From Haliotis rufescens (Eukaryota), in contig NW_025964223.1 in the NCBI RefSeq assembly GCF_023055435.1, forward strand, positions 7,316,001 through 7,380,000: DNA of 64,000 nucleotides, given 5' to 3'. Of the stretch, positions 8,498 through 63,534 are shown piece by piece. The notes beneath the pieces were generated by a model that was not told the origin of the DNA, did not search any database, and saw only the letters and a list, made by a program, of their open reading frames with translations. The first letter of the stretch is position 1. Every line of letters begins with the position of its first letter. A program made the position numbers and the translations under genes.

Positions 8498-8926
8498 GTT
8501 TGTTTTTAATGACACGCTAATGATGCCCCAGAACCTTCATTAAGTTAATGACGCGCTAATGACACCACGACGTCATTAAAACGTTAGTACAACTGGATTT
8601 AATGATACATTAGTTAATGAAGGTTTAATGACACGTTAATGCATCATTAAAGTTTGATACAACCGGGTCCTGGACCCGGTTGTATCAAAGCCTCATTAAC
8701 TAATGGCTACATTAAACCCTAATGATACATTAAATGCTTAATGCACCATTAGTTAATGGCATCATTAAAATCGGTTGTATCAAACGTTTATTAGCATATC
8801 ATTATCTAATGGTGCCTTAATGTAAGTGTCCTCATTAAGCTGTCATTAAATTCGGTGTTTCCCCTAAATATTTCCCACAATTCCTTGACGTAAACACGTA
8901 CGCGTTACTTCCGGTCGTCTGTCAAA

Positions 8927-39905: not shown

Positions 39906-40171
39906 ATCATGTGATCATGAGTGGTCCTTGCTGGGTGGAGAATGATCATATGGACCTGGTATTCCAAGGTGCAATGTGGAGACTTGGTATTGAAGTATTC
40001 ATGGAAATGGTTCAATTCAGGGTGGATATGGGTCCATATACATGGTATTTGAGGATGCAGGTTGGACAGTGGTATTTGATGATTCTTGTCAGCGACCAAT
40101 GGCTCAGTATATGGGTATTTGAAGATGTAGGTAGATTGATATATCCTGAGTATCAAACGGCATTCAGTTGA

Positions 40172-43100
40172 TCAGAGCAAGGATGCAGGTTTGCCAGGAT
40201 GGAAGCCCCCCGTAGCGTCACTCTTGGCACCAAAAGATTCAAATTTGTGGTCCAGTGGCACACCTGAGAATAAAATCATTCAAAGTTGTAAGTGAGTTCG
40301 GTCTAACGCCTCTTTAAACAGTATTTCAGTTACATCACAGCATGTCCGCTTGATGTGGGAGGAAAGCCCAAAGCATGGGTATGGTGCTGAAAACCCTACA
40401 AACATTCAATCTAGGGATTCGAACCACGATGATAGATTCCTGGCAAGACTCTGCCGAGCGAATTGTGGAACCTCAGACGAACAACCTGTGCCCCTAGAGG
40501 TTTTAACTTTAAACCCCGATACATTGCAAAGAGCACCCCCATCTGAATGTTTATATTCATCATGCAAACCTCCCAAACCTCCCAATGAAGGTAAAAATTC
40601 AGAATCCCGCTTTAAAAATCATGGAATGGAAAATGGCCGAGACAACTAAACGTACCCGCCAGGTACTCCAGACTGGGGACCGTGATGTCGCTGTACTGGC
40701 TGATGACGCTCCCCCACAGCGTGTTCATCACCTTGTCTGAGGCCCCCTCGGGCCCGTGGTACAGGAAGGGCCCCCATACATCCGAGATCAAGTACTCCAT
40801 TTCCTCATGGGTCACCAGAGAACTGTGCTGGAAAAGTAAGCAAACTCCGTCAGTTGTTTCATCCTGTCTTATGTCAAAATGCTGCACGCAGAGAAAATTG
40901 AAAACAGACACAAATAATTAACAAGTACATCCAATGAGATCCAGAAAATTTGCCCCACCAGGATTCCAGGTTGGAACTGTCCCGTGATTCTCACAATCGA
41001 TCTGGGCACATGCCAACATCCAACATCAGGTTGGAAATTCCATGTATTACAGTGCCAAAGACACGGTTACAACTGGAATGGTACTGTCAAAATATGTTCC
41101 TGGTTCCTGGAGGGCACACTTTGGAATCATAGTTTTTAGCCAAAATGGAAAACAAAGCCATTGATGAATGTACTTTCACAAACGTAAACTGGAGGACCAC
41201 ATGGAACTTAAACCTATAAACATATCCTCATGGACAGCTGAACTCACAAAACAACAAGAAAACAACATTATCACTATTCCCAGCCAGGGGGCACATGAGA
41301 ATTTTGTTTGTTCATATAATAATGAACAAAAACTTTAAAAAAAAGTCCTACAAAGCCTTAAGAAGAGACAGACCCTTGGGTCACCTTATATCATCAGAAA
41401 AAAAGATTTAGCGTGAAATAAATACACAGTAAGGACCCTTTTATGGAAAAAATAACTCTCAGCTAACTTCAGTAGTTTCTGAGAAAACCTGTCCCCACTG
41501 CAGACACTATGCACTAAGTAAAAATAACATGGATCAAGGGATGTAACTCTGTAAAAATAATTTACAGGACCAATGTTCAAACAGTCTTGACTAGTATCTC
41601 TTAGATAGGCATGTACACTTTCATTCCTGTAACTTCAGTAGTTTATGAGAAAATTGGTCCCCATTTCATGCAGTATGCACTATGCAAGGTCCATAAGTTC
41701 CAAACTCATTTTAAATCATGACCAATTACATCAGCGTGTAAAAGTTCCTTTCTTTGACTAAAACAGTTTTTCGAAAAATGTCCCCTTTGAGAAGCGAACA
41801 GACGGACGGACGGAATAACTCTGTGGTGGGGGATAATAATGGGTATTCTGACACTGACATGATTTCAGAGGGTTTTATCAATTTCATTGAATGGGAAGAG
41901 CCAAGCCCGCTCACGGTGACATGACATTTGCCGACTTCAAAGATGGATCAAAATTATTGTTCAAGGTGGCACCCTTGAGTTCCTAACAAGGTCATTAAAA
42001 TCAGATATTGGTTCTTGCTACTGCTAAACAATGACCTGAGGACATCCCATTACAGGTCATGTCAGAATGAGCTTCCATCTGATCAATCACAGCCTCTCAG
42101 AGCCACATCAGGAAAGTGACAGTCAGAATGTGTTTTCTAATCATGAACCTCGATAAGGCCAACAAGGGGGTATTCCGAACGACAGTTACAGGCTCATTCC
42201 ATCGAAATCATCATCTTTTTCTCGCTTGAACGGGATAAATATTTGAACAGGAGAGACTTTCCATAGGCCATGGGAAGTACTACCATACAATCTCAGCCAT
42301 CTATTACACATTCCAGAATTTCATTTGTTCAGTTTTAAAGTTTTGAATCAATATTTTTCAACCGTAGTCTGAAGTAGGAAGTCGCCAGTTTGAAACTAGT
42401 GCTGTAAAGCTCGAGAAAACTACTTTCTGACTGGGTAAAGTTCACTTCTTTTTAGCAATAATTATTGGTTGGTCAAAGTTCGCGAAATGTCCTTCTGATG
42501 TGACCTGTTGAGGGATGTCCTCAGATCTTTGTTTCGCGGAAGTAAGCAGTAAGATCTGAGTTTAAATGAGATGGATTCCCAAAGGTACATCTGAACATCA
42601 TTACGAGTGGCCTGTGGCACACCTGAAACACTACATGTCTATCCCTGGATATACAGAAAACATACAGGAACGATATTCACCTCTATCCCTGGATATACAG
42701 AAACATACAGGATCTATATTCACAGGATTTATATTCACCTCTATCCCTGGATATACAGAAAACATACAGGATCTATATTCACCTCTATCCTGGATATACA
42801 GAAACATACAGGATCTATATTCACAGGATCTATATTCACCTCTATCCCTGGATATACAGAAAACATACAGGATCGATATTCACCTCTATCCCTGGATATA
42901 CAGAAAACATACAGGATCAATATTCACCTCTATTCCTGGATATACAGAAAACGTACAGTATCTATATTCACCTCTATTCCTGGATATACAGAAAACATAC
43001 AGGATCTATATTCACCTCTATCCCTGGATATACAGAAAACATACAGCACCTATATTCACCTCTATCCCTGGATATACAGAAAACATACAGGATCTATATT

Positions 43101-46100
43101 CACCTTTATCCCTGGATATACAGAAAACATACAGGATCTATATTCACCTCTATCCCTGGATATACAGAAAACATACAGCACCTATATTCACCTCTATCCC
43201 TGGACATACAGAAAACATACAGGATCTATATTAACCTCTATCCTGGACATACAGAAAACATACAGCACCTATATTCACCTCTATCCCTGGATATACAGAA
43301 AACATACAGGATCTATATTCACCTCTATCCTGGACATACAGAAAACATACAGGATCTATATTCACCTCTATTCCTCTTCGCCGTTTCTTTTGTGACGGCT
43401 CATCCTCCTGTTGTACAGTTCCATCATCACATGCATACCCTTCCGCGTCCATCTCCTCCAGCAGCAGTACCGTGTCCCAGTCCGCGTACATCTTAGACGG
43501 GAAACAATCGGCACAGATGTTGTCTCCAAAATACACAATCTGAAACAAATAAAATATTTATAAAAATGCATGAAAGTCTTCAAAACAAATAAGATACATA
43601 AATGAGAGACTTTAATATTACTGTCAGATTGTATCTGTGAATGGTTACCATGGTTATGGAGTTGCACGTAGGAAAAATAAAATGACTTAAGGCAAAAAAA
43701 AAGGTTTCTGGCCTCTTGGTATGGCTTAAAGTGATGTGCATCCTCTCATCGCACACACACACAACCAGCACAGACACAACATGGGTCATGCATCGTGTGC
43801 AGTTGGTTATTTGTATTTTGGGGAAAGCGTTTAGAATTGTGGTGTGAGGGTGGGAAAATGATGCGGATTGGGACCTGAAACATATTTTTTTCTTCAATTT
43901 ATAAAATAAAACAAGCACATGGCACAATTAAACTTGAATATTTAAGGAGTCAAATATCATCATCAAACCCCACCTTAAACATATTGTCAAGTCAGGGCTT
44001 TGCAGCTCAAGAAATCAAGCTATATATGTAGTTTCATGTGAAATTAAATATTACATTCCAATATATCTATGGAATTTATTGCTGAAAACACTGAAAAAAA
44101 ATGCCAAATATAATTGAGCGCAACAAATTTCATAAATACTGTCCATATTTTACGCTATATGTATACACACACCTCATGTTGATAACACAGCAGACAGGAA
44201 ATAAAACAAATAAATACAGCTTCATAACAAATCTCAATGCACTTGCTGTGTGAACGCATTAAGTATCAATTTCCATGAGACATGCATGCACTGGTCCAGT
44301 ATGTAAAACAGACAGTCCAAGGGAGGTAACTCTCCTTACATCGAGGTCTGGCACATTGAACAGTCTTGCAATATGGTTCAAATGAGTCCCTACTCCCTAT
44401 CTAAAACAGTACAAGCTTTAGAATATTATACGCATGCAGCCTTACATGATAAAGCAGTGCCTTGAGAAATATACATCTGGCAAAAAGTTAAACATCACCA
44501 GAAAATCTTAATCACTGTCGCGAGACTGCAAATCCAACTGGCAAAATAATTTTGGTAAAGACACAAACACCTATGCATTACTAAGATGTGCATGTTTGCT
44601 AGTGCTTCTGACGTGCAAAGCATGTGCACAATGCACTTGCAACAAGCCACTCGCAACTTGTTAAAAACACAACTTGTCAAAAACATGAGAACTGGCAACT
44701 TGAAATTATTCTGAGCTGCAGTTCTAATCATTATTCAACATGGCTTATAGGAGATTATCTGACAGCAGATGCATAAATGTCCTACAAAGCTGTTGGTCGT
44801 AATAAGTAAACAATGGTCATCACGGACAAGGTGAAATTGACCCAGACCAGCAGGTTAGAAGTCAAAGAGGGCGATCAAGCATTCCATGCTGTCAGACAGT
44901 CATCACAGAGACTATTTGGAGCGGCGTTGGTCGAGATTGAACCTGAGGACATGGTCAGATGAGAGAAGGGTTTTTTTGCGTTTCATAGACGGGTGTATTC
45001 AGGTCAGCAAAGAAACATGAAATACTCGCACAGAAACATTTGACGAAAAGCCCTAATTTGTGATATAACACAAGCACTGCACCGAGCGTGACACAAGCAC
45101 TGCACCGAGCGTGAGACAAGCACTGCACCGAGTGTGATACAAGCACTGCACCGAGCGTGACACAAGCACTGCACCGAGCGTGATACAAGCACTGCACCAA
45201 GTGTGTCACAAGCACTGCACTGAGTGTGTCACAAGCACTGCACCGAGCGTGACACAAGCACTGCGCCGAGTGTGGCACAAGCACTGCACTGAGTGTGGCA
45301 CAAGCACTGCACCGAGCGTGGCACAAGCACTGCACTGAGTGTGGCACAAGCACTGCACCGAGTGTGGCACAAGCACTGCACCGAGCGTGGCACAAGCACT
45401 GCACTGAGTGTGTCACAAGCACTGCACCGAGCGTGGCACAAGCACTGCACTGAGCTTGACACAAGCACTGCACCGAGTGTGGCACAAGCACTGCACCGAG
45501 TGTGACACAAGCACTGCACCAAGTGTAACACAAGCACTGCACCGAGCGTGGCACAAGCACTGCACCGAGCGTGACACAAGCACTGCACCGAGCGTGACAC
45601 AAGCACTGCACCGAGCATGGCACAAGCACTGCACCGAGCGTGACACAAGCACTGCACCGAGCGTGACACAAGCACTGCCTCAAGTGTGACACAGCCTACC
45701 ACAGGAATGCATCAAAGATCTCACTGGAGGCATGTGAAGGAGGATTGAGGCAGTCATTTGGCACGTGGCAGCTACACTAAGCTACTGATGATCTTGTGAC
45801 AGTCATGTTGGGCCCACAATGGTCATTCTCAGCAACAACGACAGTTGTGGCTGTTCCATATTTAAGGCACGTGCCAATTTTCTCAATAATACACAATGAA
45901 ATGCCCATCAATATTATAAATACCACTTCCCAAAATGTTGACATTCCGATTATCGATCTTTTTAGCGATTTTTTTGTCGACAAAGAATTGCTCTTTCAGG
46001 AAATGATACATATTCTGGTTTCAGGATTTGGGACTAACACAGTCTTTCAAAGCTTATGGCCAAAATAGCAGGGAGTGCTTCACATTTTTCCAAGTATTTT

Positions 46101-49100
46101 ATTAACAGCAAACCTTTGGATTCTCTTTTCCAGTCAGAGTGGCTATAAACTTTGTCAGCTCTCTTTCGTTGCCACGGTAATAGAAACCACCTTTTACCAG
46201 ATTCTTTGTTGGTTCCTTTACACTGTGTTTTTCTGTAAAATATCAAACTTATATTTATTTATAGAGTAAAAATATCATTAAACTTATCCTGACTCATACT
46301 GATTGCTAATCTCTATTTCTGAAAGGTAGTGGAATGTTTCTGAACTGTGAACCACAGAACACTAAAACAGCTCACCCGAACGCACCCATGGCCTTCGCAT
46401 GTACACCGGAAACACATGACCAAGCCAGTGTACTCGTCACTCTCATTTTCACCCCCACTGGTTGGGGAAAATTTCCTGTGCTTTTGAAATCCAAGCCATC
46501 CTATAAAATTTCACCCTTTTTCATCAAATATTTTGCTTGGATTACTATGACTCCTTTAATTAGTTGATGATACACCTGTCATTTCTTTTGTCCTAGTTCT
46601 CTCATAAATTATCAACCCACAACCATCAATCAAACCTGAAGGTATGAGTTTAGGGCTTGGACGAGTCCAGATTTACTACCCGGGTACCCGAGTCCAGATT
46701 TACTACCCGGGTACCCGACCCTATCCAGGTACCAACTGTAGGTCTCAAGAGTTGGGAACACAATGTCTAATTGGGAATAGTTTAACTGTAGCCCTGGCAA
46801 AAACTGTTTAGATATATGTATGAAACCTGAGACCATATAATATATGCATGCGTACACTGAAGTTTTGTCTTTACTCAAACATATACAAGTCTTTATTTAC
46901 TTTTCTTATTTCTACATCTTCTCAAGACTGCTGGGGGTGGTCGGGTAGCCTAGTGGTTAAAGCGTTCGCTCATCACGCCGAAGACCCGGGTTCGATTCCC
47001 AACATGGATACAAGACAATGTTACGCTTAATTTAGATACTTAGGTTCCGAAATTCGACATAACCAAGTTTGACACGAAGTTCGACTGTACAGGATTTCTT
47101 ACCTATCCGTTGAAAAGCATGCCCGTCAGTGAAGAAAGATGGTTTTCTTGCATAGAATATGTTGATGTCAAAATACGATTCCCAGTCATCGCTGCAACAC
47201 AGTAGACAGGAACATGAGTAACAATAAAACAATGTGCAGTGATGGTTGCTAGTTAACAGTGGGATGCCTGGGACAACACTCCCCGGATAATGAACAATCC
47301 AAATGTTGTACCTGGGAGCCGAAAGTCAAGGTTTTGAAACCAGGCATCCCATGATGTGTTCAAAGTATTTCATTTCACCTGCTGCAACTGTATTCTAAAA
47401 TTGCAAAGGAAGGGAAACTTGACTTGTTCATGTCCACTGATTGATAACGTTCAACCAATCACATTTTCAGTTGACATAGTTTGGTGTAGCTACAGGTAAA
47501 TATTTTGGGAAGTAGGGGGTATGATCATTTCCACAGTATCTTTCATTGGGCACTTTTAAGGACAATGCAACAGGAGGTTTTACCCTAGAATAGTTTCCGG
47601 TAGTCAGCAGTTTGTACCCTAGAAAAGTCTCCAGTAGATAGCAGTTCGTACCCTGGAATAGTTTCCAGTAGATAGCAGTTCTTACCCTAGAAAAGTCTCC
47701 AGTAGATAGCAGTTCTTACCCTAGAATAGTTTCCAGTAGATAGCAGTTCGTACCCTAGAATAGTTTCCAGTAGATAGCAGTTCGTACCCTAGAATAGTCT
47801 CCAGTAGATAGCAGTTCATACCCTAGAATAGTTTCCAGTAGATAGCAGTTCGTACCCTAGAATAGTTTCCAGTAGATATCAGTTCATACCCTAGAATAGT
47901 TTCCAGTAGATAGCAGTTCGTACCCTAGAATAGTTTCCAGTAGATAGCAGTTTGTACCCTAGAAAAGTCTCCAGTAGTCAGCAGTTCGTACCCTAGAATA
48001 GTTTCCAGTAGTCAGCAGTTCGTACCCTAGAATAGTTTCCAGTAGCCAGCAGTTCGTACCCTAGAATAGTTTCCAGTAGAAAGCAGTTCTTACCCTAGAA
48101 TAGTTTCCAGTAGAAAGCAAGTCTTACCCTAGAATAGTCTCCAGTAGACAGGAGCCGAAGTCGGAGAAGGAGCTTGTGAGGAGGAAGACACAACGTCCGT
48201 CCTGTTTCAGAGACCGCAGCCACTTCTTTATGTCATCGCTACATTTCTCAACATACTTGTTTGGATTTTTCTTTAGAGTTGGGAAAAATCCCCCCGTTTC
48301 CACTGGAGAATTGATGAAATGGAGAAATAAGAAATAATGCATTTAAGGCCACAATAACATAATCGTAATTTAGATTTTCATCGAAGTCTTTCTTGGTTGT
48401 CAGAGACCAACGATTTAATATTCACGGGAAATAATTACTTGGGTTTTCTTTACCCCATTACAGTTCAATTTATCCAGTATGTCCAGTCAAAAAAGTCTTT
48501 TGTTTTGTAAATCCCGATGACAACTTTTCTCCAGCATTTCAGGAACAAATCATGGGTTTTTATCAAATTCCAAGGCTCCCTGAGAAAATTGAATGCTGAT
48601 GCAATTAAGTTCTTGAACTTCCTGCCAGTATGGTTATGTAATTCCATAAATAGGAAAATTGAGACAGGCCTCAGTTATATATATAAGTGATTCACAACTC
48701 ATTCATTTCAAATGTGAAAACCAAAAAATAATGTGGGTAAATAAGGATCAGGGGTTATCTCCCTTGGACCACAAGACGCTACAACCACAAGGTAAATACT
48801 GATCCCCACAAACTGTTTTCTTCATCATTAATAAGTGTGTACAGTATCTCCTTCCATGTATTTGTTGTGATCAAGATATAAAAAACTCACTTTGCCAGCT
48901 TCCTCTTAAGGAAAGTATGATTGCTCACGTTCTTTGGGGCAAGTAAATAATGTTTCTGTGTTCCAATCCACACATTGCAACTGCAGGTTTTGAGACAATT
49001 ACTAATGTATTATACATGGTAAAAGGGAAATACTCACATGCAAAGTTGTGATATGTATATATATGCACAAGGGAATCTAATACATCCCCCCAGATTAGAG

Positions 49101-52100
49101 TGTAGTCTATCCTCTTAGTGGATTTTGAGTCCTTTATCTGAAAAAAAATATAAATAATAGTGAGCTACAAATTTTAGAAGTGAGTGAGTTCAATCTCATT
49201 AAAATCAGATCTTAGTTCTCGCTATTGCAAAACAAAGATCTGAGGACATCCAATTAAGGATCACGTCAGAACGACCTTTCATCCAACCAATCAGAGCGTT
49301 GCTTACCAGATCATGAAAGTGACAGTTGGAATGTGTTTTCTAATCATGCAGCCACGACATATTTAACAGGGGGTATTCCGAACGACAGTTACGGGTTTTA
49401 TGATCATATCCATACAATCTAGGCCATCTATAAGAAATTCCACAATGTTCTTCTTATCAGTTTCATTTTTTTAAATCGAGAATACGTCAAAATATGTTTC
49501 GAAGCTTAGTCGGCAGTTTGAAACTAGTGTCATAAAGCTTGAGAAAGCTGCCTTTTGATTGGCTAATGTCGATTTCTTGTCAGTCATTTCATTGGTCGGT
49601 CAAAATTCGCGAATGGTCGTTCTGACGTGACCCATAATGGGATGTCCTCAGATCTTTGTTTAGCAGTGGCGAAAACTAAGATCTGATTTTAATGAGATTG
49701 GAGTTAGTTATGTTTAACGCTGCTTTGAACAGTATTCCAGCCTATTGTGGTAGACATTTACCACTTTGGTGAAACCCACGAGCACGGGTACGGTGCTGAC
49801 AAACTTAGAAATACAAGCAGGGCGAATCCATGATCACTGGTTTGCACAGCGAATTGTGGCACCTTAGACAACTTGGCCACCTGTACCCCTAGTTTTAGTA
49901 GTTTTTGTTACTGCAATCTCATTAAAATCAGCTTTTAGTTATTGCTGCTGCTAAACATCGATCTCAGGACATCAAATTACAGCTCACATCAGAATGAACT
50001 TTCATCAGACTGACCAGGGCCTTGCTTACCAGATCAGGAATATGACAGTCAGAATGTGACAGTCAGAATGTGACAGTCAGAATGTGACAGTCAGAATGTG
50101 AGTTAGAATGTGATTGTCAGAACTTTTCACAAACTTAATCATGTGAATTTAAGGGAACACAAAATTATGGTCTTACCTTTTTCTCTTCAATGTCAATAAT
50201 TCTCGCCATGGCAACAAGGCCTGGAGTATCAAAGTAGTTCTCAAAGAAACGGAAAGTTGCTGAAAATACAACAAAAACCCAAATGACATAAAGCCAAAAC
50301 TTCCTCTCCCTTCCACCACTGAAGTTAAAGAATAATAATTCTATGCTCAAGTCTGCTAAACTTTTCATTTAAATGGGAGTATGTGTGACAGTCTCATGCT
50401 AATTACCAGCCTTGGTGTTAACATTGATATTAGTGCCTTGTGAGTGAGTGAATGAGTGAGTATGGTTTTACGCCGCTTTTAGCAATATTCCAACAATATC
50501 ACGGCGGGGGACACCAGAAATGGGCTTCACACATTGTACCCATGTCAGGAATCGAACCCGGGTCTTCGGCGTGACGAGCGAATGCTTTAACCACTAGGCT
50601 ACCCGACCGCCCCTAGTGCCTTGTGTGTAACTGAGACACTGACTCTGTTTAATACAGATATTCAGTAGCTACTTGATTGATATACAACATGAAGTGAGTG
50701 AGTGAGTGAGTGAGTGAGTGAGTGAGTGAGTGAGTGAGTGAGTGAGTGAGTGAGTGAGAGAAAAAGAGAGTGAAAAAGTGAGTGAGTGAGTGCTTTTACC
50801 AATATTCAAGCAATGTTACAGTGTGGACACTAGCAATGGGCTTCACACATTGTACATGTTAGGAATCCAACCCACGCCTTCATCATGATGACCGAACACT
50901 TCAATCACTAGGCTACTCATCAGCCCTCAGAAAGAGGATTTGACCCAGCAGACCAGCAAAGTGCCATTTGAACAACTTGAATCAAACTTGCTCCTGAGCC
51001 TAGTGTCCTTTAACTGGCATCAGGATTGTAAAGAAACATTTCCAATTGTTTTTTGGTTAGTGGCTATAGTCGACTGATTTCTAGATTATCTCCCCTTTGA
51101 AAAATCGTCTGTGCATTGCAGGTGACGTGTGTGTGAGCAAAGACGTATATAGTATATACGTCCGTGGTGTTAGTAAATGAGATTTAAACTGTGTAAGTGC
51201 CTTGTGGGAGGATGACAGAGGTTATCATGCGAATGTGTTTGGGGATGGTAAATATCCTGCATTAGGAATAAACATTGTATTTAGCAAGCTTTGGTTTATT
51301 CCTCTTTATTTATATCTCCAAAGTTGCCAAAACTTATAAAATGCCTAAGTTATGTCACAGTTAGACACTGATTTTCAGTATATTTGACTGTTCTTTTGAT
51401 AATGATAGCAATTATACCTTTAGTTTATCCAGATTCCTGATGGTTAATTCTGACTCAATCGCCGAATGACAAGGGGACGCCATGTTTGTTTATAAACACT
51501 GAAAGTAGTCCCTACGTGACCTTTGATATTTGCATCTCCATCCACATATGACCCCAATGGATATCGTTTTTATCCGTTGGCTTTATCCTGCAGAGAAACC
51601 TACCCATCATATGGTAAAACATTTTACGTTGATTGAATTAGGTCAAATATGATGCTATGGAAGCAACAAACATAATACGAACTTGAAGTTGTTGTGAGTG
51701 CATGAACAAGGATCATGTCAAGGTGAGGTGAGGTGAAATGGGGTTTAACGTCGCTAGATTATTGCACTTTTGTAGCGACGTGCATGTACGTGTGTGTGTG
51801 TGTTTGTGTGGCTGCTTGTACTAGTCCGGACTGATGCCGATTTATAGTGCTAGCTCACTGAGATACCATGCCGCAGTTTAACATGAATACCCCACTCAGA
51901 CACAATATACTGACTCCAAGCCGACCAGTCCTTGTTTTAGCCCCTTAATACCGAGCGCCAGACAGGGTAACAACAAGTACCATCTTTTAACGTCTTTTGA
52001 TATGACGCGGTCGGGGATTGAGCCCCGGACCTTCTGCTCTCCGGGTGGACGCTCTTGCACTAGACCACAAAGGCGGTGATCATGTCAAGTCTCACAAATG

Positions 52101-55100
52101 TTCAAGTGAGTGGGGGGCACGGGTGACCCAGTCGTCCAAGGTGCCGCGATTTGCTGTGCAGAGTTGCGTCCCTGGGACACGCCAGAAACCTATGATTGTG
52201 GGTTCAAATCCCGGTTCGCCCCGATTATGTTTCTAGGTTTGTCAGCACCATACCCGAGCTCGTGGGTTTCACCGGAGTGGTAAATGTCTGAGACCTGCAT
52301 CACTTCGGGCTTTCCTCCCACATTAAGCTGACACGCCGTGATATGACTGGATAATGTTAAAAGCTGCGTTAAACCCAACTCACTCACTCACTCAACTGTA
52401 TGCTTAAATATATCTGCCATAAATGATTATCCCTATGAAAAGTTGAATAGAATGTGTGCTTGCCAAACCAAACTGCCTGGCTGTGTAACAATTCACCTAA
52501 CCTTCGGTGCCACGATACGAGTATTTGTATCCGTAGGTCATGGATTGGTACAAAACGATACAAGTATACAACAGTGCATCACTTCGGGCTTTCCTCCCAC
52601 ATTAAGCTGACACGCCGCGATATAACTGGAAGACTGTTAAAAGCGGCGTTAAACCCAACTCACTCACTCACTCAAGTGAGTGAGCCTGTTTCAATGGCAT
52701 GAGCTTCATGTGGAAGGAAACACCGAAGGGATGCAGGATGTAGATGTCCCTTTGGTGAAACTCACAAGCAGGAAGATAGTCAGACCCTGGATCATAACCC
52801 ATGCAATATGTGGATCCTGGCACTCTAAAGGGACATAACTATGTAAGGCTGGAGAAAGTGATGATTTATGATTTTTACAACAACAATTGACCCACTGTTA
52901 GAGTTTTTAACTGTTTTCTTGACAGTTTCTGCATGTTTCCAAATCTGATCCTCTCCATAGGCTGCCTGTACCTCGGCCGTCTCCAGAGCCCTTGTTCCGT
53001 GAGTGGCTCTGAAACAATACGCTTCAATTACAACACTCAATCAGATTACCAAAATAAGACTCTACAGACTCCACAGGAACATCTGTCAAACAGGAACATC
53101 AGACTTTTATGACAAGGTTTTAATGTTGATACAAGAAATTGTCTGCAGCAATCTGATTGGTTGGAAAATGTTGCTAAATAGGCCTACAAAAACGACGGGG
53201 GATATAGAAACATGCTCCATCCATCACGCTTTGTTTTGCATAACTTATTCATCATTCAATATTTCTTCTTGAAACCTTGTGCTCTCAACATGTGCCTTTT
53301 GCTATTCAGGAATTTTTTTAAATATAGATATTTTTTTTCACTCTTTCAAGGCAACAATTTCAACTTTGATTCAATTGGTGCCCCAGATTTAGAGAGAATT
53401 TGACCATCGTCAAAATGTCATGACTCAGGCATTGAGCATGTTGAGCAGTGGCAATATGAAAACCTGTAAGTTTTATACTATGAACAGCTTCAATCATGTC
53501 GCTATGAAGAATTAGAGATGATCTGTCACAAGTGTACCAACAAGTCTGGAGTGTTGCCACTTTCCAAACGATATCATGCGGGACAAATAATCTGTAATTC
53601 AGAGTTGTGAGGAGGTTGTTCTGTGTTTTCTGATAAAATGAAGTGGGTCTCCCAATCACAAGTGGAGATATCAGCCCAGACAATACATCGCTGGAACACA
53701 ATCTTCCGGCTGATTGCTTTCTACTCAGACCTGGCGACCCTCCCCAATAACAGTTTCCGCCAAGGTGATGATAATGCAAACTAGAACATTTACAAACACT
53801 CTAAAACCATAACGTTTCAAGACCGATGTGGGTGAATTTCACTGAAGCAAAAATAACTTATCAATCCATTACACTCTGGAAGTAGTCCGTCAAAATCTGA
53901 CCTCAGGTCATCACCATGGAGTAGCAATTCATGGCCTGGGATTTCATCCTCCACATGTTTGATTCCAGTTATTTCAAATGGGTTTCCTACCCACACATGT
54001 GTAAGAAAAGCTGAATCCACACATTTGTTTTACAACAACTACCTTAGGATCTTGCCATCATCTGCAATCTTGAGAATATGCCCCTTCTCCATGTCCAGGA
54101 AGAGGCCCTTACAGCTGAAACAGAGAGAGGAGAACATGAGGAGATGAGCATCAGTAGGCAATGAGGAGATGAACATAAGGAGGGGATGATAAGGAGGCCA
54201 CAAGTAGATGAACATAAGGAGGGGATCATAAGGAGGCCATGAGGAGATGAACATAAGGAGGGGATAAGGAGGCCATGAGGAGATGAACATAAGGAGGGGA
54301 TAAGGAGGCCATGAGGAGATGAACATAGGGAGGGGATAAGGAGGCCATGAGGAGATGAACATGAAGAGGGGATAAGGAGGCCATGAGGAGATGAACATAA
54401 GGAGGGGATGATAAGGAGGCCATGAGGAGATGAACATAGGGAGGGGATAAGGAGGCCATGAGGAGATGAACATAAGGAGTGGATGATAAGGGGTCATGAG
54501 CAGATGAACATAGGGAGGGGGTAAGGAGGCAATGAGGAGATGAACATAAGGGGGGGGGGGGGGGGGGATTATAAGGGGGTCATGAGATGAACATAAGGAG
54601 GGGATGATAAGGGGGTCATGAGGAGATGAACATAAGGAGGGGATGATAAGGGGGTCATGAGGAGATGAACATAAGGAGGGGATGATAAAGGGTCATGAGG
54701 AGATGAACATAGGGAGTGGATGATAAGGGGTCATGAGGAGATGAACATAGGGAGGGGATAAGGAGGCCATGAGGAGATGAACAAAAGGGGGGAGGGGAAT
54801 TATAAGGGGGTCATGAGGAGATGAACATGAGGAGGGGATAAGGAGGTCATGAGGAGATGAACATGAGGAGGCCACAAGGAGATGAACATAAGGAGGGGTT
54901 GATAAGGAGGCCATGAGGAGATGAACATAGGGGATAAGGAGACCATGAGGTGATGAACATAAGGAGGGGGATGATAAGGAGGCCATGAGGAGATGAACAT
55001 GAGGAGGCCATGAGGAGATGAACATAAGGAGGGGATGATAAGGAGGCCATGAGGAGATGAACATAGGGGATAAGGAGGCCATGAGCTGATGAACATAAAA

Positions 55101-58100
55101 AGGGAATGATAGGGAGGCCATGAGGAGATGAACATAAGGAGGGGATTATAAGGAGGCCATGAGGAGATGAACATAAGGAGGGGATAAGAAGGCCATGAGG
55201 TGATGAACATAAGGAGGGGATGATAAGGAGGCCATGAGGAGATGAACATAAGGAGGGGATGATAAGGAGGCCATGAGGAGATGAACATAAGGAGAGGATG
55301 ATAAGGAGGCCATGAGGAGATGAACATAAGGAGGGGATGATAAGGAGGCCATGAGGAGATGAACATAAGGAGGGGATAAGAAGGCCATGAGGTGATGAAC
55401 ATAGGGAGGGGATAAGGAGGCCATGACGTAATGAACATAAGGAGGGGATGATAAGGAGGCCATGAGGAGATGAACATAAGGAGGGGATGATAAGGAGGCC
55501 ACCAGGAGATGAACATAAGGAGAGGATGATAAGGAGGCCATGAGGAGATAAACATAAGGAGGGGATAAGGAGGCCACCAGGAGATGAACATAAGGAGGGG
55601 ATGATAAGGAGGCCATGAGGGGATGAACATAAGGAGGGGATGATAAGGAGGCCATGAGGTGATAAACATAAGGAGGGGATGATAAGGAGGCCATGAGGAG
55701 ATGAACATAAAGAGGGGATGATAAGGAGGCCATGAGGAGATGAACATAAGGAGGGGATGATAAGGAGGCCATGAGGAGATGAACATAAGGAGGGGATAAG
55801 GAGGCCATGAGGTGATGAACATAAGGAGGGGATAAGGAGGCCATGAGGAGATGAACATAGGGAGGGGATAAGGAGGCCATGAGGTGATGAACATAAGGAG
55901 GGGATAAGGAGGCCATGAGGAGATGAACATAGGGAGGGGATAAGGAGGCCATGAGGAGATGAACATGAAGAGGGGATAAGGAGGCCATGAGGAGATGAAC
56001 ATAAGGAGGGGATGATAAGGAGGCCATGAGGAGATGAACATAAGGAGGGGATGATAAGGAGGCCATGAGGAGATGAACATAGGGAGGGGATAAGGAGGCC
56101 ATGAGGAGATGAACATAAGGAGTGGATGATAAGGGGTCATGAGGAGATGAACATAGGGAGGGGGTAAGGAGGCAATGAGGAGATGAACATAAGGGGGGGG
56201 GGGGGGGGATTATAAGGGGGTCATGAGATGAACATAAGGAGGGGATGATAAGGGGGTCATGAGGAGATGAACATAAGGAGGGGATGATAAGGGGGTCATG
56301 AGGAGATGAACATAAGGAGGGGATGATAAAGGGTCATGAGGAGATGAACATAAGGAGTGGATGATAAGGGGTCATGAGGAGATGAACATAGGGAGGGGAT
56401 AAGGAGGCCATGAGGAGATGAACAAAAGGGGGGAGGGGAATTATAAGGGGGTCATGAGGAGATGAACATGAGGAGGGGATAAGGAGGTCATGAGGAGATG
56501 AACATGAGGAGGCCACAAGGAGATGAACATAAGGAGGGGTTGATAAGGAGGCCATGAGGAGATGAACATAGGGGATAAGGAGACCATGAGGTGATGAACA
56601 TAAGGAGGGGATGATAAGGAGGCCATGAGGAGATGAACATGAGGAGGCCATGAGGAGATGAACATAAGGAGGGGATGATAAGGAGGCCATGAGGAGATGA
56701 ACATAGGGGATAAGGAGGCCATGAGGTGATGAACATAAGGAGGGGATGATAAGGAGGCCATGAGGAGATGAACATAAAAAGGGAATGATAGGGAGGCCAA
56801 GAGGAGATGAACATAAGGAGGGGATGATAAGGAGGCCATGAGGAGATGAACATAAGGAGGGGATAAGAAGGCCATGAGGTGATGAACATAAGGAGGGGAT
56901 GATAAGGAGGCCATGAGGAGATGAACATAAGGAGGGGATGATAAGGAGGCCATGAGGAGATGAACATAAGGATGGGATAAGAAGGCCATGAGATGATGAA
57001 CATAGGGAGGGGATAAGGAGGCCATGACGTAATGAACATAAGGAGGGGATGATAAGGAGGCCACCAGGAGATGAACATAAGGAGAGGATGATAAGGAGGC
57101 CATGAGGTGATGAACATAAGGAGGGGATAAGGAGGCCATGAGGAGATGAACATAGGGAGGGGATAAGGAGGCCATGAGGTGATGAACATAAGGAGGGGAT
57201 GATAAGGAGGCCATGAGGAGATGAACATAGGGAGGGGATAAGGAGGCCATGAGGAGATGAACATGAAGAGGGGATAAGAAGGCCATGAGGAGATGAACAT
57301 AGGGAGGGGATAAGGAGGCCATGACGTAATGAACATAAGGAGGGGATGATAAGGAGGCCACCAGGAGATGAACATAAGGAGAGGATGATAAGGAGGCCAT
57401 GAGGTGATGAACATAAGGAGGGGATAAGGAGGCCATGAGGAGATGAACATAGGGAGGGGATAAGGAGGCCATGACGTAATGAACATAAGGAGGGGATGAT
57501 AAGGAGGCCACCAGGAGATGAACATAAGGAGAGGATGATAAGGAGGCCATGAGGAGATAAACATAAGGAGGGGATAAGGAGGCCACCAGGAGATGAACAT
57601 GAGGAGAGGATGATAAGGAGGCCATGAGGAGATGAACATAAGGAGGGGATAAGGAGGCCACCAGGAGATGAACATAAGGAGGGGATGATAAGGAGGCCAT
57701 GAGGGGATGAACATAAGGAGGGGATGATAAGGAGGTCATGAGGAGATGAACATAAGGAGGGGATGATAAGGAGGCCATGAGGTGATAAACATAAGGAGGG
57801 GATGATAAGGAGGGCATGAGGAGATGAACATAAAGAGGGGATGATAAGGAGGCCATGAGGAGATGAACATAAGGAGGGGATGATAAGGAGGCCACCAGGA
57901 GATGAACATAAGGAGGGGATAAGGAGGCCATGAGGTGATGAACATAAGGAGGGGATAAGGAGGCCATGAGGAGATGAACATAGGGAGGGGATAAGGAGGC
58001 CATGAGGTGATGAACATAAGGAGGGGATAAGGAGGCCATGAGGAGATGAACATAGGGAGGGGATAAGGAGGCCATGAGGTGATGAACATAGGGAGGGGAT

Positions 58101-61100
58101 AAGGAGGCCATGAGGTGATGAACATAAGGAGGGGATAAGGAGGCCATGATTTGATGAACATAGGGAGGGGATAAGGAGGCCATGAGGTGATGAACATAAG
58201 GAGGGGATAAGGAGGCCATGAGGAGATGAACATAGGGGGGATAAGGAGGCCATGAGGAGATGAACATAAGGAGGGGATGAGGAGACCATGAGGAGATGAA
58301 CATAAGGAGGGGATAAGGAGGCCATGAGGAGATGAACATAAGGAGGGGATAAGGAGGCCATGAGGAGATGAACATAAGGAGGGGATGATAAGGAGGCCAC
58401 CAGGAGATGAACATAAGGGGGGATTATAAGGGGGCCATGAGGAGATGAACATAGGGAGGGCATAAGGAGGCCATGAGGAGATGAACATAAGGAGGGGATG
58501 ATAAGAACATGAGAACATAAGAGATAACATGGAGAACATGAGAAAGAAATTTTTTGTTTTGTTTGTTGTTTAATGCCGCACTCAACAACAGCTATATGAC
58601 GGCGGTCTGTAAATAATCAAGTCTCGACCAGACAATCTAATGATTGACATCATGAGCATCAATCCACTCAACTGGGATACGATAACATGCATCAACCAAG
58701 TCAGCGAGCCTCACCACCCAATCCCGTTAGTCGCCTCTTGCGACAAGCATAGTCCTATTCTACCCTGGATCTTCACAGGTCGGAAGAGATATAAGGAGTG
58801 AAGGAGAACCTGTTGAGGTAAGGAGATGACCATAAGTAGACTGAAGAGTCGGATACTTGGGACCTATTCTGCTCTCAGTCCTCATCATGTTTACAGGCAG
58901 AAACCATGGTTACCTTGGTAAAACAGTATCATATTTCTTTCATTTCTTAAAAAGGAGTCAGTGACAATTTATCATAGCATTGGCAAAATATTTGCCAGTT
59001 TGTAATTTTCTGGCAAAGAGACATGAGAAAAAGGCACTACACTGTCAGAGTGTGGCATTGCCCATGTACACCATCCTCCCAAGGCAAGGGTGATAACTGA
59101 CTATATCAGTCCAGTTTCCAGTAGGCTGGAATTCTGGAGTTACATTTTGGCTGGACTAACGTGTCTTATCAAAATCTCGTAACGAACTAGACACCTGATT
59201 CGTAAACAACATGGATTTCAACACCCAGATTCGGTCGGACTGCAGGATTTGCAATGTATGTGTACAGCCAACTGGGCATCAACAGATATTTTGCAAATCT
59301 TTTCACGTTTATAATCAAGGTGCTCAATTGATTTGATGCACTTTGCAAGGTAACACCCGTTTTATTACAAAACAGACCTTGATTATCGATCAGATTGTCT
59401 TGACTGGGTGCTGCCATTTTGTTTAAAGCAAATGAAAGTGATATGAGGGATGAAATCTTATTGGTCAGTAGGAGGGACAAAGAAGGGACATAACTCTGAA
59501 TAGCAACTTGTGCTGCTTGGGCTGAGCCTGGAAATTTTCAGCCTTGTTCAATAAGGGGGTGGAGACTGGACTTTTATAGTCAGTTAATTCCCATGTCTTG
59601 GGAAGATGTATGTCCTCTAGAACACAGCTGTGACATGCTGAGTAGTGACTTTGATACTCACATAAACTCCTTGTACTTGAACAGGTCAGACTTGATGGAG
59701 GCATCGTAGCCTTTCTTATCCACCAAGAAATCTGTTATACACGAGTATGTCAGCTAAAAAAGGATACAAAACTTGTTTAGATGCATTGGGCTGACAAAAG
59801 GTACATATTTCTCAACAAGTGAGGATGGCCAGTAGGAGATGGCGGTAGGAATTTTATATAGAAAACAAAAGTGACGCAGCAGGAACACTTTTTATGTTTT
59901 TCTCACCACATATACCATTAAACACCACTTGGCACACACTGAACCCGGACGTTTAATACCATGTCAGTTGTCAAGCACCTTATTCTATGCACAACAGAGT
60001 ACTGCTTCAAATAAACTGGAAAATTTGAAAAATATCTTTAAAAATCCATTTTATTGACACACAGAATTTAAAAGTGATCTGCCAATGCCCCCAAAACAAT
60101 TCTTTTCTTAGCCGTAAGTAATTTATACCAGTGTTGATTATATTCAAACCTGGGCCATCTATCAATCAACTGATAACAGCAAAATATGTTGGAATATTAT
60201 TTTGGTGAAAAAAACAGTTGAAAGATTGTACATTTCGTGGTTATACTGACAGCCTGAAATGTTTATATACGACAGATATTTTTCCAGAATTTAATTGCCC
60301 ATAATACAGGGTGCATATAACACACGAGTGCGTATTATACGTGAATGAATAAGTCTTGTGTACATTGATCAATCGGAAGGGGTTCTAATTAGGATTGTTC
60401 ACTAGCCAATATGTTAGCAAATATTGTTGTGGGTGCTTATTAGAGCAGTGCACTAATTACATCGAATACAGTATGTAACATGTCTCTGAGGACCAAGGAA
60501 ATGAATCTAGTCAACAGGTTTTTTAGCATATACATGCAATCAATTTGGAAAACAAAACAAAATCTGCCAATAGAAATCTGAGAAACAGAAAATCGGACAA
60601 ACTTTTAAAGCGCCATTTTTGTTACTTGACCAGCGTGTATTCTTTCGCTTCCAAAAGCGGTTTCATAGTTTTCAAGGATATTCTTTCTTAAATTTAATAT
60701 TAAGTCTTTGAATGGCATTTAGAAGTGATACACATAAGGAAGAGAATTTATGGATGTCAACTTCTTTATTATGAAGTTCACCTGATTAAGGAATAAGGAG
60801 TAAGCCTATGCTCCGAAACGTTGTGTTTCCTCATCATGCTCATAATAAAGAAGTTGACATCCATAAATTATCTTCCTTAAAGTTGATATTGTATATTATC
60901 ATCTTTATATGTATAATACAGAATTTTTATGACCCTAAATATTTTTGGTTACTTTTGTTTAGATTTTTTAAGATTTTCAAACACGAAACTATTTTTTTAG
61001 TCACAAATACAAGCGGTGGTGAACAGTCCTGTGTGTTAGGAAGGGAGAATTTACGTTTCAAGGTTTTACATTTGTAATGAAATAATTGAATTTTCCTGTA

Positions 61101-62121
61101 GACAACTACACAAAAAGTATATAATAAATAGGATATTCCATGTGTCGAGTGAAGTATCATGTTTTCTCTCACCTCGTGACAGGGTAAAAGGAGATACGCC
61201 AATTGTGAAAATATCTCCTTTCACCCCGACACTTGATGTGAGAAACATATTTCACTCGACACATGAAATATGTTCCCTCTCTCTCTCTCAAAATATGAAA
61301 ACAGAAAATCTGACAAACTTTAAAAAGACACTCAAAGCCTTTGACAAGATCAATCATGGTCTAAGCTCACTTGAGCAGTTGTTAATTGGAAAATGTGCTT
61401 TTCAAATTATTTTATTTAATTTAATATACACACACACACACATTATTGACAATGATTCTACAACCTGATTCATAAAAAATAGGCTTAGTATTACATGTAA
61501 CCAAACAAGATATCACTTTTTCTTTAGCATGTTTAGTACTAGAAGAGTATGTACGCTATGTTATCTTTATCACATAGAATAAACTACGTTTATAACGAAC
61601 ACGCTTATATCGAACTGACCGATATAACAAACTTATTTTTTAGTCCCGACCATTTATTGTATAAATGCTGTATATATGCTTATAATGAACTACAGATATT
61701 ACAAACTAAAATTTGTGGTCCCTTCAAGTTCGTTATAACCATAGTTTACTGCAGATACACACATAAATCTAGACATTACATAGATCTAGTGTCAACCACC
61801 CCAAATTGATCATGATATTTATATTATCATTGTGAAATGTTCAGAACTGTTCTCAAACTTAGTAAAATATATACAATATATTGGTCACAATTAATATTAT
61901 AGCAGTCACGCGTTAAACTAGCAAAACCATGATAACCGGCTGATTGTTAGATAACTCATCAAAGCATCACCAGCTAATCAAAGCATCACCAGCAGATCAC
62001 ACATCTCGGTTCTCACATTAAACACTTCCACTAGTTTATACTTGGCCAGGGTGTGGTCCAGATCGAAACCGTAGGCATCGTAATCCGCCAGACAAATAGT
62101 ACTTGGATGGCCCGAGCTCAT
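40172..62121 (-). CDS. NT5DC1: 5'-nucleotidase domain-containing protein 1 (HAD superfamily), 12 exons, 461 aa
   Basis: Exons 62121-62017, 59753-59662, 54114-54043, 53008-52896, 50259-50177, 49137-49038, 48302-48128, 47191-47103, 46232-46114, 43539-43366, 40827-40656, 40263-40172; all GT-AG with matching phases, 1386 nt; motifs GFDLDHTL, ENYFD, LLTSS, ARKPSFF, VYFGDNICAD. Confidence 0.93.
41250..41840. mobile_element. Possible Helentron/DINE-like (pearl-type) non-autonomous element
   Basis: Degenerate internal repeats of about 150 bp; GACGGACGGACGG run and GGGGATAATAA end. Confidence 0.4.
41990..42573. mobile_element. Mutator-like MITE, same family as 49191
   Basis: Long degenerate TIRs and a homologous interior. 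Confidence 0.8.
42638..43372. repeat. Minisatellite, 43-44-bp unit, about 16 copies, overlapping the NT5DC1 exon 10 donor
   Basis: Unit TATATTCACCTCTATCCCTGGATATACAGAAAACATACAGGATC. Confidence 0.97.
45068..45691. repeat. Minisatellite, 23-bp unit, about 27 copies (intron 9)
   Basis: Unit GACACAAGCACTGCACCGAGCGT. Confidence 0.97.
46651..46870. mobile_element. Partial hAT MITE, same family as 3755, inverted
   Basis: TAGGGCTTGGACGAGTCC start with an internal tandem duplication of about 27 bp. Confidence 0.7.
47577..48148. repeat. Minisatellite, 34-bp unit, about 16-17 copies, overlapping the NT5DC1 exon 7 donor
   Basis: Unit TACCCTAGAATAGTTTCCAGTAGATAGCAGTTCG. Confidence 0.97.
49191..49700. 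mobile_element. Mutator-like MITE, 510 bp, inserted in a SINE-C tail
   Basis: TIRs of about 85 bp starting CAATCTCATTAAAATCAGATC; 9-bp TSD GAGTGAGTT / GAGTTAGTT; another truncated copy at 49914-50110. Confidence 0.88.
50443..50613 (-). mobile_element. tRNA(Asp-like)-derived SINE family A, full length
   Basis: TSD TAGTGCCTTGTG; TAGCCTAGTGGTTAA A box, GGTTCGATTCC B box. Confidence 0.93.
50693..50927 (-). repeat. (GAGT)n microsatellite expanded from the tail of a degenerate SINE-A
   Basis: About 16 perfect GAGT units followed by a decayed SINE-A body. Confidence 0.85.
51723..52077 (-). mobile_element. SINE family D (Meta-domain-like), full length
   Basis: 12-bp TSD GATCATGTCAAG; tRNA-like head, (CACCT)n tail; partial copy at 62967-63197. 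Confidence 0.88.
52113..52671 (+). mobile_element. Chimeric retroposon: SINE-C, then about 180 bp of transduced flank, then the 3' half of another SINE-C
   Basis: Outer TSD TCAAGTGAGTG (52102-52112 and 52672-52682); the middle part matches 38151-38334 inverted. Confidence 0.85.
54127..58540. repeat. 4.4-kb purine-rich minisatellite, 36/39-bp unit, abutting the NT5DC1 exon 3 acceptor
   Basis: Unit GAGGAGATGAACATAAGGAGGGGAT(GAT)AAGGAGGCCAT; higher-order duplication of about 1.64 kb. Confidence 0.97.
58555..58782 (-). mobile_element. SINE-like family B
   Basis: Family B body, adjacent to the end of the array. Confidence 0.85.
60735..60879 (+). mobile_element. Penelope-like pseudo-LTR fragment with an inverted tail
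   Basis: 40-bp inverted repeat around CCTGA..GGAG-loop-CTCCGAAACGTT; AATAAA in the right arm. Confidence 0.65.
61575..61752. mobile_element. pogo/Tigger-like MITE
   Basis: Ends ..TTATAACGAAC / GTTCGTTATAAC..TTTACTG. Confidence 0.5.
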
Positions 62122-63534
62122 GGTGCGTCTCTGTGCTGCCAGCGTCAATATCCGTGCTGCGCTGTGCACGTGTTGTGTATTGTTGTTGATCTGACCTTGT
62201 CGCTGACGTGTCGTCACTGATTCATTTGTCCCAAGGGAAAGGCAACAGTGTTTTTTTATCCTACATCTGGATAGACATCGTATAATAAACATTCAAGATT
62301 CGCCTTGTTACTGGAACATTTATTTTGTTATTCGAAGTTATATTATACAACAGAACTTCGATCAATATTTGGAAGACAAGATCGTTTTTACCGCAATGTA
62401 AGGGAGATAAGTACGCTCTATATAGATGGAGTTAGCCTCTAAAAAAATCCACGGCGTTTCCTTTCATCATTACGTGTGGCTTAAACCGTCAATGTAGTTA
62501 CATTATCTAAGATAACATTTTATGCCATTGGTATGTTATATGAAATTGCAAGAGATGTTTTACAATTAAGATACAAAAAGAAAAACGATGCTTTGGAGAA
62601 GGGTAAGTTTCCGTGGATTTGCCGCCACATTCATTTCACCATGCTAAAACAATTGACAATTTATAAATGCCGATATAATTTTGCAAGTAAAGAAAGCTAT
62701 ATAAACACAGATATACTGTTCCTAAGCTTTATTGCTGTAATATATAGAAAATATATTTTATGGAACTAGAAATACTACAGCGCGTAACAGTATAACTTAT
62801 GAATATGATACTTTATTTATAAGGATATCATTCAAATCAAGTAACAATCAGCATCTTAAATACCTTTTAGGCATGGGGCTACGTTAGTGTCCAACCTTGG
62901 TCTGTGACTGTGTCTGTGAAGGATACATCACGCACGAGGCTTTTCAGAGACATTCATTTTTAAAATGTGAGGTGAGGTGAAATGGGATTTAACGTCGCGT
63001 CCAAGATTATTGCAATTATATAGCGACGCGCATGCACGTGTGTGTGTACTGATGTCTATTTATAGTGCTAGCTCACTGAGATACCATGCCGCAGTTTAAC
63101 ATGAATACCCTACTCAGACACAGTATACTGACTCCGAGCCGACCAGACCTTGTTTTAGCCCCTTATGCCGAGCGCCAGACAGGGTAACAACAAGTAGGCA
63201 GTGCGTATAGGGTAGCCATGTAGTTAGACCCGCTGAAGACAAAAACAAGATTCCCAAACAACAACTGATTACGAACAAGTTATTTTAAGTTTGGATGGGA
63301 GTTTTTGCTAGACAATCTTTTATCCGACATATTTTCATGTGTGATATAAATTGTATCTGATTATTACGTACACACATTGACGAGAGCATATGAATATTAC
63401 TTGTGCTGTGCTAAAAATGAACAGGGGAAATAAACACGCAATGGTTCAACTGGAAATATGTGTGACTTATTAAAAAAAGCTTTGTGTGGTTGTCTAAATA
63501 CCTTCATGTTACATAAAGATGAACAGTCTCTACC

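Follow-up and report, generated by a model that had tools for sequence, protein, structure and literature searches.

A 44-nt minisatellite spanning the intron 10 donor of an NT5DC1-like gene in the abalone Haliotis rufescens

The window analysed here, 64,000 nucleotides of Haliotis rufescens contig NW_025964223.1, carries an NT5DC1-like gene whose tenth coding exon runs directly into a tandem array. The features on which the argument depends are as follows.

40172..62292, minus strand: NT5DC1-like gene, whole coding span; 12 coding exons, 518 aa
43366..43539, minus strand: exon 10; 174 nt, phase 0/0, ending KKRRRGIE
43360..43368, minus strand: authentic donor of intron 10, GAG/GTGAAT; first intron base 43365
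42638..43375, minus strand: donor-spanning minisatellite at the start of intron 10; 44-nt unit, about 16 units
43279..43365, minus strand: in-frame 87-nt extension that use of the donor copy at 43278 would add; 29 aa
42638..42646, minus strand: end of the array, AGGGATAGA, which forms the intronic half of a 9-nt near-repeat; putative slippage seed
40828..40860, minus strand: true 3' end of intron 10, where CTGAC resembles a branch point, with a pyrimidine tract and CAG
40656..40827, minus strand: exon 11; 172 nt, starting HSSLV

The 12-exon chain, with the 43366 to 40827 junction that the initial annotation had proposed between exons 10 and 11, reproduces protein P0001 letter for letter, although P0001 probably represents the annotation made at this locus itself and is hence not independent. 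Intron 10 is about 2.5 kb long.

TRF gave the array a period of 44 with 93% matches. A repeat of this kind is far beyond chance, and its unit copies count as one observation rather than 16. Each 44-nt unit joins 8 nt of exon tail to 36 nt of intron head, the last 8-10 nt of exon 10 being the seed and the edge of the first unit; 43-nt variants, two 15-nt partial duplications, an 87-nt higher-order repeat and distinct, patterned unit variants are also present. The motif GT[G/T]AAT occurs 18 times on the minus strand of the array: as the authentic donor, as 15 copies preceded by AG (14 GTGAAT, one GTTAAT), and twice within the 15-nt partial duplications, where CCT precedes it. With 15 donor copies and 16 acceptor-like CAG sites, the count agrees with the earlier description of most units as carrying both the authentic donor and a CAG. 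The CAG is followed by GGATAGAG at nine of the 16 sites, by GATAGAG (7 nt) at three, by GAATAGAG at two, by GGATAAAG at one and by GGATAGAC at the final site. CAG and GT thus lie 7-8 nt apart, a micro-exon size (30 nt or less) as a motif only.

The ends of the array are informative about its possible origin. The exonic counterpart of the 9-nt word at the array end is AGGAATAGA, at 43375-43367 on the minus strand; exon 10 terminates in AGGAATAGAG and the array in AGGGATAGAC, and within the array two junctions are of the exon type and nine of the intron type, of 16. The array was probably born by microhomology slippage between these two near-identical words, which lie 44 nt apart, and would have grown by unequal exchange. 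Seed repeats of the 9-nt type are also found at 18 of 198 other donors. Origin from a dispersed repeat family or transposon was rejected, the array unit having one locus among the genome matches listed, which is a lower bound.

What the donor copies could produce is constrained by the reading frame. Between the true donor and the copy at 43278, which is 87 nt (43+44) downstream, there is no stop, as had been noted, and use of this copy would yield exactly the 29 residues then quoted; it is in frame because one unit lacks a G. The other 14 of the 15 pseudo-donors lead to a premature stop, as does a single micro-exon of 7 or 8 nt through a frame shift, and all these stops lie at least 149 nt upstream of the last junction. 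At the protein level, KKRRRGIE-HSSLV is found in all five Haliotis proteins, from four species whose annotated proteins use the first donor, and E-HSS occupies the same place in other gastropods. RNA-like contigs, one per run from the 4 of 24 runs that were aligned to 40100-40900, join exon 11 to exon 12 in four of four; each ceases to match at the exon 11 acceptor, and they confirm this acceptor but not the donor. Three raw-read runs, all of them miRNA libraries, were left out. Flat contig depth over exon 11 was not accepted as proof that no other forms exist, there being one contig per run.

The likely reading, in our view, is of a 44-nt minisatellite that copies the exon 10 donor, probably born by slippage, from which the spliceosome takes the first donor so that the array leaves with the intron. 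By analogy with human F7, the choice of the first donor could result from exon definition or from 5'-to-3' scanning, and leak products would be cleared by nonsense-mediated decay; to judge from two human precedents, +43 or +87 may be used at a low level. The initial annotation saw in the array a substrate for alternative donors. This holds insofar as the unit copies the true donor and the +87 site is the sole productive alternative, but the idea that the micro-exon plus micro-intron shape of the unit signifies use is not supported: duplication at a short direct repeat around a donor would give that shape by itself.

By its sequence anatomy the intron 10 array belongs with the 37-bp VNTR of human F7 IVS7 and with the lancelet "mirages". 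Two features by which arrays of this F7 and mirage type are recognised are found here: the first unit spans the exon-intron border, the array beginning within exon 10 at 10 nt from its end, and the donor signal is reiterated into the intron, with 15 copies in AG/GT context. In F7, according to PMC1557585, the first unit likewise lies across the border (4+33, against 8+36 in abalone), identical donors are reiterated into the intron and in-frame pseudo-sites are present, yet only the first of 5-9 identical donors is used, even where later ones stay in frame. The abalone, a mollusc, has 16 donors against these 5-9, and its units add an acceptor-like CAG. That the first donor alone is used was shown for F7 (PMC1557585); for abalone it is inferred. 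The lancelet mirages in Adh3 and in the globins BflGb6 and BflGb9 are also minisatellite-like border duplications in an invertebrate, on the donor or acceptor side, with units of 10-160 bp and several loci per genome, and they leave regular splicing undisturbed (PMC3087553). They differ in phylum and gene, and in abalone the seed is visible at both array ends; PMC3087553 calls the mechanism that generates mirages unclear. A third comparison is provided by the 31-bp VNTR of human CBS IVS13 and the minisatellite in intron 2 of 6-16, donor ladders of 15-25 copies in which two pseudo-donors are active in addition to the true one, 6-16 being interferon-inducible (both as described in PMC1557585).

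These last two genes lend some weight to the idea that the abalone donors leak, with +43 (decayed by NMD) and +87 used at a real minor level and +87 giving a protein of 547 aa with 29 residues added after KKRRR. The copies are identical to the true donor over -3..+6, the +87 frame is open and escapes the 50-nt rule, and the insertion would fall at residue 431, outside the core of residues 67-414 for which solved cN-II structures can be aligned, beyond its end and beside a stretch with indels among gastropods; CBS and 6-16 use their first pseudo-donors (PMC1557585). The AlphaFold model (mean pLDDT 48.8; residues 377-518 below 50) is uninformative on the insertion. We nevertheless think appreciable leakage unlikely. 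The +87 frame is owed to the single unit without a G and its use requires +43 to be skipped, folding predicts the +87 donor to be the least open of the 16 (0.018, against 0.127 for the first), and the in-frame pseudo-sites of F7 are silent (PMC1557585). A 547-aa form is absent from all five cluster members and three homologue hits, which weighs little since annotations omit minor forms. The folding z of -3.2 over the first units was not accepted as a sign of selection because repeats inflate z.

The initial annotation further proposed 7-8-nt micro-exons. The pieces between CAG and GT might be included singly, with frame shift, NMD and a tuning effect on expression, or two together, one of 7 and one of 8 nt. 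Sites were scored with a weight matrix built from 129 distinct donors and 192 distinct acceptors mapped locally, those of the gene itself among them. The donor copies reach 8.9 (72nd percentile); the unit acceptors range over 7.4-9.6, the real acceptor of exon 11 having 8.9. Median-strength motifs flank each piece, and the comparable score makes the acceptor-like site real as a motif. A 7+8 pair would keep the frame and add five residues (523 aa), and TGC stands upstream of the AG in 3 of 16 units. TGC in that position has a role for SRRM3/4, whose micro-exons mostly preserve frame, whereas here only pairs of 7- and 8-nt pieces do so. The eMIC domain is of early bilaterian origin (PMC12992808). 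Against this, inclusion of one piece alone would disrupt the frame and bring in a premature stop, and extra residues at the exon 10/11 junction were seen in none of nine aligned gastropod proteins, annotations of which can miss micro-exons. An acceptor-like site near a donor is not rare: an AG scoring at least 7.4 lies by chance within +22..+66 of 11 of 203 donors (about 5%, the exon 10 donor counted) and one scoring at least 8.9 near 3 of 203.

Intron length is a further obstacle. From the first donor the first two unit acceptors would require introns of 36 and 79 nt, below the 90-nt minimum among 216 mapped introns (of which 167 belong to myosin heavy chain paralogues; the aligner permitted 25 nt or more), in agreement with the earlier opinion that 36-nt introns are too short to splice alone; the third and later acceptors would give at least 123 nt, within the local range (5th percentile 111 nt). 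Human ultra-short introns offer a likeness in having a GT...AG intron-like unit of less than 66 nt, but those in PMC4463651 were screened at 37-65 nt and are mostly G-rich and conserved, while the abalone unit is 36 nt and not G-rich. Of the 16 unit acceptors, two have a YTNAY motif between -45 and -15, the real acceptor having CTGAC, although this motif discriminates poorly (134 of 204 real windows against 116 of 204 controls). In the units the pyrimidine tract has a predicted openness of 0.003-0.038, compared with 0.183 for the real acceptor and a median of 0.082 over 94 real sites. The unit CAG is predicted to be weak in use because most units (14 of 16) have no branch-point motif, the tract is predicted to be paired and a donor stands 36 nt upstream. 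It would seem to have been present by chance in the old intron head and to have been duplicated with it. Micro-exon inclusion, unsupported by these results, is very improbable.

Stepwise removal of intron 10, with unit acceptors and donors as a ladder of intermediate sites, found no better support and is more improbable still. Acceptor-like and donor motifs do alternate, and an AG/GT contact with an acceptor score of 9.2 lies just beyond the array at 42622. Recursive splicing has the acceptor directly before the donor, in AG/GT contact, and is known from introns much longer than 2.5 kb. Within the units there is no such contact, the gap from AG to GT being 7-8 nt in every one, so that nucleotides would remain in the mRNA after every step, and the 42622 site is without a branch-point motif. 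That the assembly has created the array or got its size badly wrong is hardly credible given its patterned variants and higher-order repeat, its unique flanks and single locus among the genome matches listed, and the local frequency of such arrays.

The NT5DC1-like gene has another array of the same kind.

47581..48148, minus strand: second, unrelated donor-spanning minisatellite, in intron 7 of the NT5DC1-like gene; 34-nt unit, 17 donor copies

Here the 7-nt word CTCCTGT is repeated exactly one unit (34 nt) apart, and this same seed logic supports the slippage model. Further splice-site arrays were found in two myosin genes and at a DGCR6-like exon. In the 464 kb around the window there are 75 arrays, which together take up 81.8 kb; a second myosin region (L087-L096), with exon edges that are poorly mappable, was left out of the counts. 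The two cases in the NT5DC1-like gene hinted at enrichment of arrays at splice sites, but the wider count gave this no support: the intron 10 array excluded, 4 of 20 intronic arrays in mapped genes straddle a splice site where 2.6 are expected (P=0.25) and three straddle a donor where 1.3 are expected (P=0.13), a test of 20 arrays only against a rough geometric null. Our literature search, most subscription papers being outside its reach, found neither published abalone junction-spanning arrays nor VNTR alternative donors in long reads.

Because an acceptor and a donor are present together in each unit, the array might be regarded as a splice cassette tunable by copy number, with a regulated +87 isoform or poison micro-exons of 7/8 nt, and the many similar abalone arrays, at some 1-2 per 100 donors in a small sample, as a standing source of new splice variation. 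This is improbable, although somewhat less so than micro-exon inclusion. As a single locus the array is of small weight, its class being already described in humans and lancelets; frequency is the useful part, and the visible seed words suggest a concrete birth mechanism for mirages. If the ladder rate, from a small and non-random sample, were to hold genome-wide, abalone would possess many natural F7-like loci, in which first-donor scanning outside mammals could be tested with existing RNA-seq. Among the 216 donors mapped across three gene sets, three have a ladder of this sort, the intron 10 array excluded, and a fourth candidate lies in adjoining DNA. When 150 array ends were scanned ab initio, four gave high scores, against 0.5-0.8 expected. 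Two of these are the NT5DC1-like gene's own arrays, themselves part of the training set, and another, which abuts the donor of a Bcl-2 exon without repeating it, was discounted; one new case remains.

The 44-nt minisatellite spans the exon 10 donor of a 5'-nucleotidase gene on the minus strand. Twelve GT-AG exons, chained from 62292 to 40172, recovered the annotated protein P0001 letter for letter (518 aa; source name 5'-nucleotidase domain-containing protein 1-like, Haliotis rufescens), and exon 10 matches P0001 at 100% and Pfam 5_nucleotid weakly.

43539-43366, minus strand: exon 10, from the exon chain matching P0001
43365-40828, minus strand: intron 10, 2538 nt
42638-43375, minus strand: donor-spanning array of 44-nt period, from the tandem repeat call
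47581-48148, minus strand: second donor ladder, in intron 7, with a 34-nt unit and 17 donors

The first 10 nt of the array are exon 10 sequence. The array holds the true donor and 15 copies of it in AG|GT context, two further bare donor copies inside 15-nt partial duplications, and 16 CAG sites, each followed by a piece of 7 or 8 nt. Copies score about as well as the true donor, and unit acceptors as well as the real exon 11 acceptor, on matrices trained on locally mapped junctions, those of this gene included, in a set weighted to myosin paralogues. The initial annotation, which had seen in most units the true donor and an acceptor-like CAG, is borne out, and for the copy at 43278 the distance of 87 nt from the true donor and the 29 residues, in frame and without a stop, were reproduced. 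Just beyond the array, 42630-42612 (minus strand) resembles the acceptor and start of exon 12, with 13 bases identical and a few further matches, and includes an AG|GT contact of acceptor score 9.2; this likeness is either chance or a remnant.

Probably the array is a neutral or nearly neutral minisatellite across a splice junction, born by slippage, from which the first donor would be chosen and the remainder lost with the intron, any leak products presumably being decayed. The last bases of exon 10 read AGGAATAGAG; those of the array read AGGGATAGAC, beyond which the intron is unique. When the array is collapsed, two 9-nt words with one mismatch flank the donor 44 nt apart, and slippage between them would give exactly the 44-nt unit; both possible junction forms are present inside the array (two exon-type, nine intron-type). 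The array thus appears to have arisen by slippage, and the CAG of the units would then simply belong to the sequence in which the second word sits. Seed words of this kind are frequent, being present at 18 of 198 other donors, and an acceptor-like AG matching that of the first unit in quality lies near 11 of 203 donors, that of exon 10 counted. The same logic applies to intron 7, in which a 7-nt word is repeated 34 nt apart and the unit is also 34 nt.

The sequence KKRRRGIE-HSSLV is found in five proteins from four Haliotis species, and E-HSS at the equivalent place in Patella and Gigantopelta. The exon 10-11 protein junction is kept in these gastropods, and the first donor therefore marks an old, conserved junction; this is no test of donor competition, because P0001 is probably the annotation of this very locus and other species may lack the array. 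Spliced contigs of all four runs aligned (three studies; RNA by guess) skip intron 11, and their genome match ends at the exon 11 acceptor, which does not reveal the donor. We infer that the first donor of intron 10 is the one chosen.

The main alternative, minor use of the donors 43 and 87 nt downstream, is unlikely. With 14 of the 15 pseudo-donors a stop arises 149-722 nt before the last junction, and the general 50-nt rule of nonsense-mediated decay, assumed to apply to abalone, was the criterion by which leak products would be removed. Only the +87 donor escapes a premature stop (547 aa), and its insertion might be tolerated, as it falls outside the core aligned with solved cN-II structures; the AlphaFold model is too poor to judge further. 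Against this, the longer form occurs in none of five cluster members and none of three homologue matches. That the array acts as a splice cassette tunable by copy number seems improbable. Use of the 7-8-nt pieces as micro-exons is more remote: one alone leads to a stop, and the frame survives when a 7-nt and an 8-nt piece are included together. Joining the first donor to any unit acceptor from the third onwards would remove at least 123 nt, an intron of normal size here, and this counts against the reading of the array as a neutral minisatellite. Two soft arguments oppose use of the unit acceptors, namely that their pyrimidine tracts are predicted to be paired and that a branch-point motif, itself a poor discriminator (134 versus 116 of 204 in controls), occurs in 2 of 16 units. 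Stepwise removal of intron 10 is scarcely credible. As had been proposed, 36-nt introns of one unit seem too short to splice alone; these and two-unit introns (79 nt) fall below the 90-nt minimum of 216 mapped introns (11 from the NT5DC1-like gene, 38 from myosin VIIa, 167 from myosin heavy chain paralogues). In human, the ultra-short introns of a published screen measured 37-65 nt, most of them being G-rich (PMC4463651).

The array is a real feature of a class already described in human and lancelet, both structural features of which it shows. In the F7 IVS7 37-bp VNTR the most upstream donor alone is used, though some later ones are in frame; the list in the same report gives the authentic donor only for LMNB2 and PDGF, and two pseudo-sites besides it for 6-16 and CBS (PMC1557585). 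Lancelet mirages, minisatellite-like duplications of exon-intron borders, are described as including both border types and leaving splicing intact, their origin being termed unclear (PMC3087553). By the features tested, the abalone array does not belong with regulated micro-exons, with ultra-short introns or with recursive sites, and literature searched under abalone or Haliotis yielded no abalone case.

Nor is the array special in this repeat-rich genome, in which it is ordinary: in the 464 kb surrounding the window, 81.8 kb consist of arrays (period at least 12, at least 3 copies). With the intron 10 array left out, splice sites (three donors, one acceptor) fall within 4 of the 20 intronic arrays against 2.6 expected (P=0.25), and for donors alone 3 against 1.3 (P=0.13), the null being a single unit placed at a random position in each array-collapsed intron; one extra myosin VIIa intron had been added by hand after its donor ladder was noticed. 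Both border types occur, because in myosin VIIa a 39-nt array repeating a donor about 13 times has as its neighbour one repeating an acceptor (L083:5689-6212 and L083:6543-7574, minus strand). An ab initio scan gave one more candidate, at a DGCR6-like exon (weak match, E 0.036, under the family cut-off), whose donor is repeated in a 40-nt array of about 37 copies (L062:5134-6631, minus strand).

In the intron 7 ladder the first donor is GTAAGA and most copies are the weaker GTACGA; every tested in-frame copy meets a stop, the protein ending at 304 aa. Most copies are likewise unlike the first donor in a myosin heavy chain paralogue (L100:8222-9499, plus strand), where an array of 36-nt period and 35 copies spans the donor. 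Together these hint that in older arrays the copies drift away from a working donor, though homogenisation alone could produce the difference.

Elsewhere, a Bcl-2-like exon has directly after its donor GT a 96-nt array whose units do not copy that donor (L056:5517-6317, plus strand), and a 54-nt array of 29 copies nearly fills a myosin VIIa intron with AT-AC ends, which we take to be U12-like (L082:890-2469, minus strand). About 15 clustered myosin head genes, whose homologues point to the muscle myosin heavy chain type (G000:C113:13.92-14.29 Mb), have short introns, with a single array among the 167 mapped. Most of intron 2 of the nucleotidase gene is a 4.4-kb array (54132-58505; 36-39-nt unit, pyrimidine-rich on the gene strand) ending a few tens of bases short of the exon 3 acceptor, and intron 11 carries at 40300-40420 a high-copy interspersed repeat, with hundreds of contigs matching it in each run. 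Further reading frames of the window encode an nSTAND3 NTPase with ankyrin repeats and a 195-nt coding repeat (18132-21239, minus strand), a Tc1-like DDE transposase (34824-35900, minus strand) and a Myb/SANT-like domain (8894-9385, plus strand).
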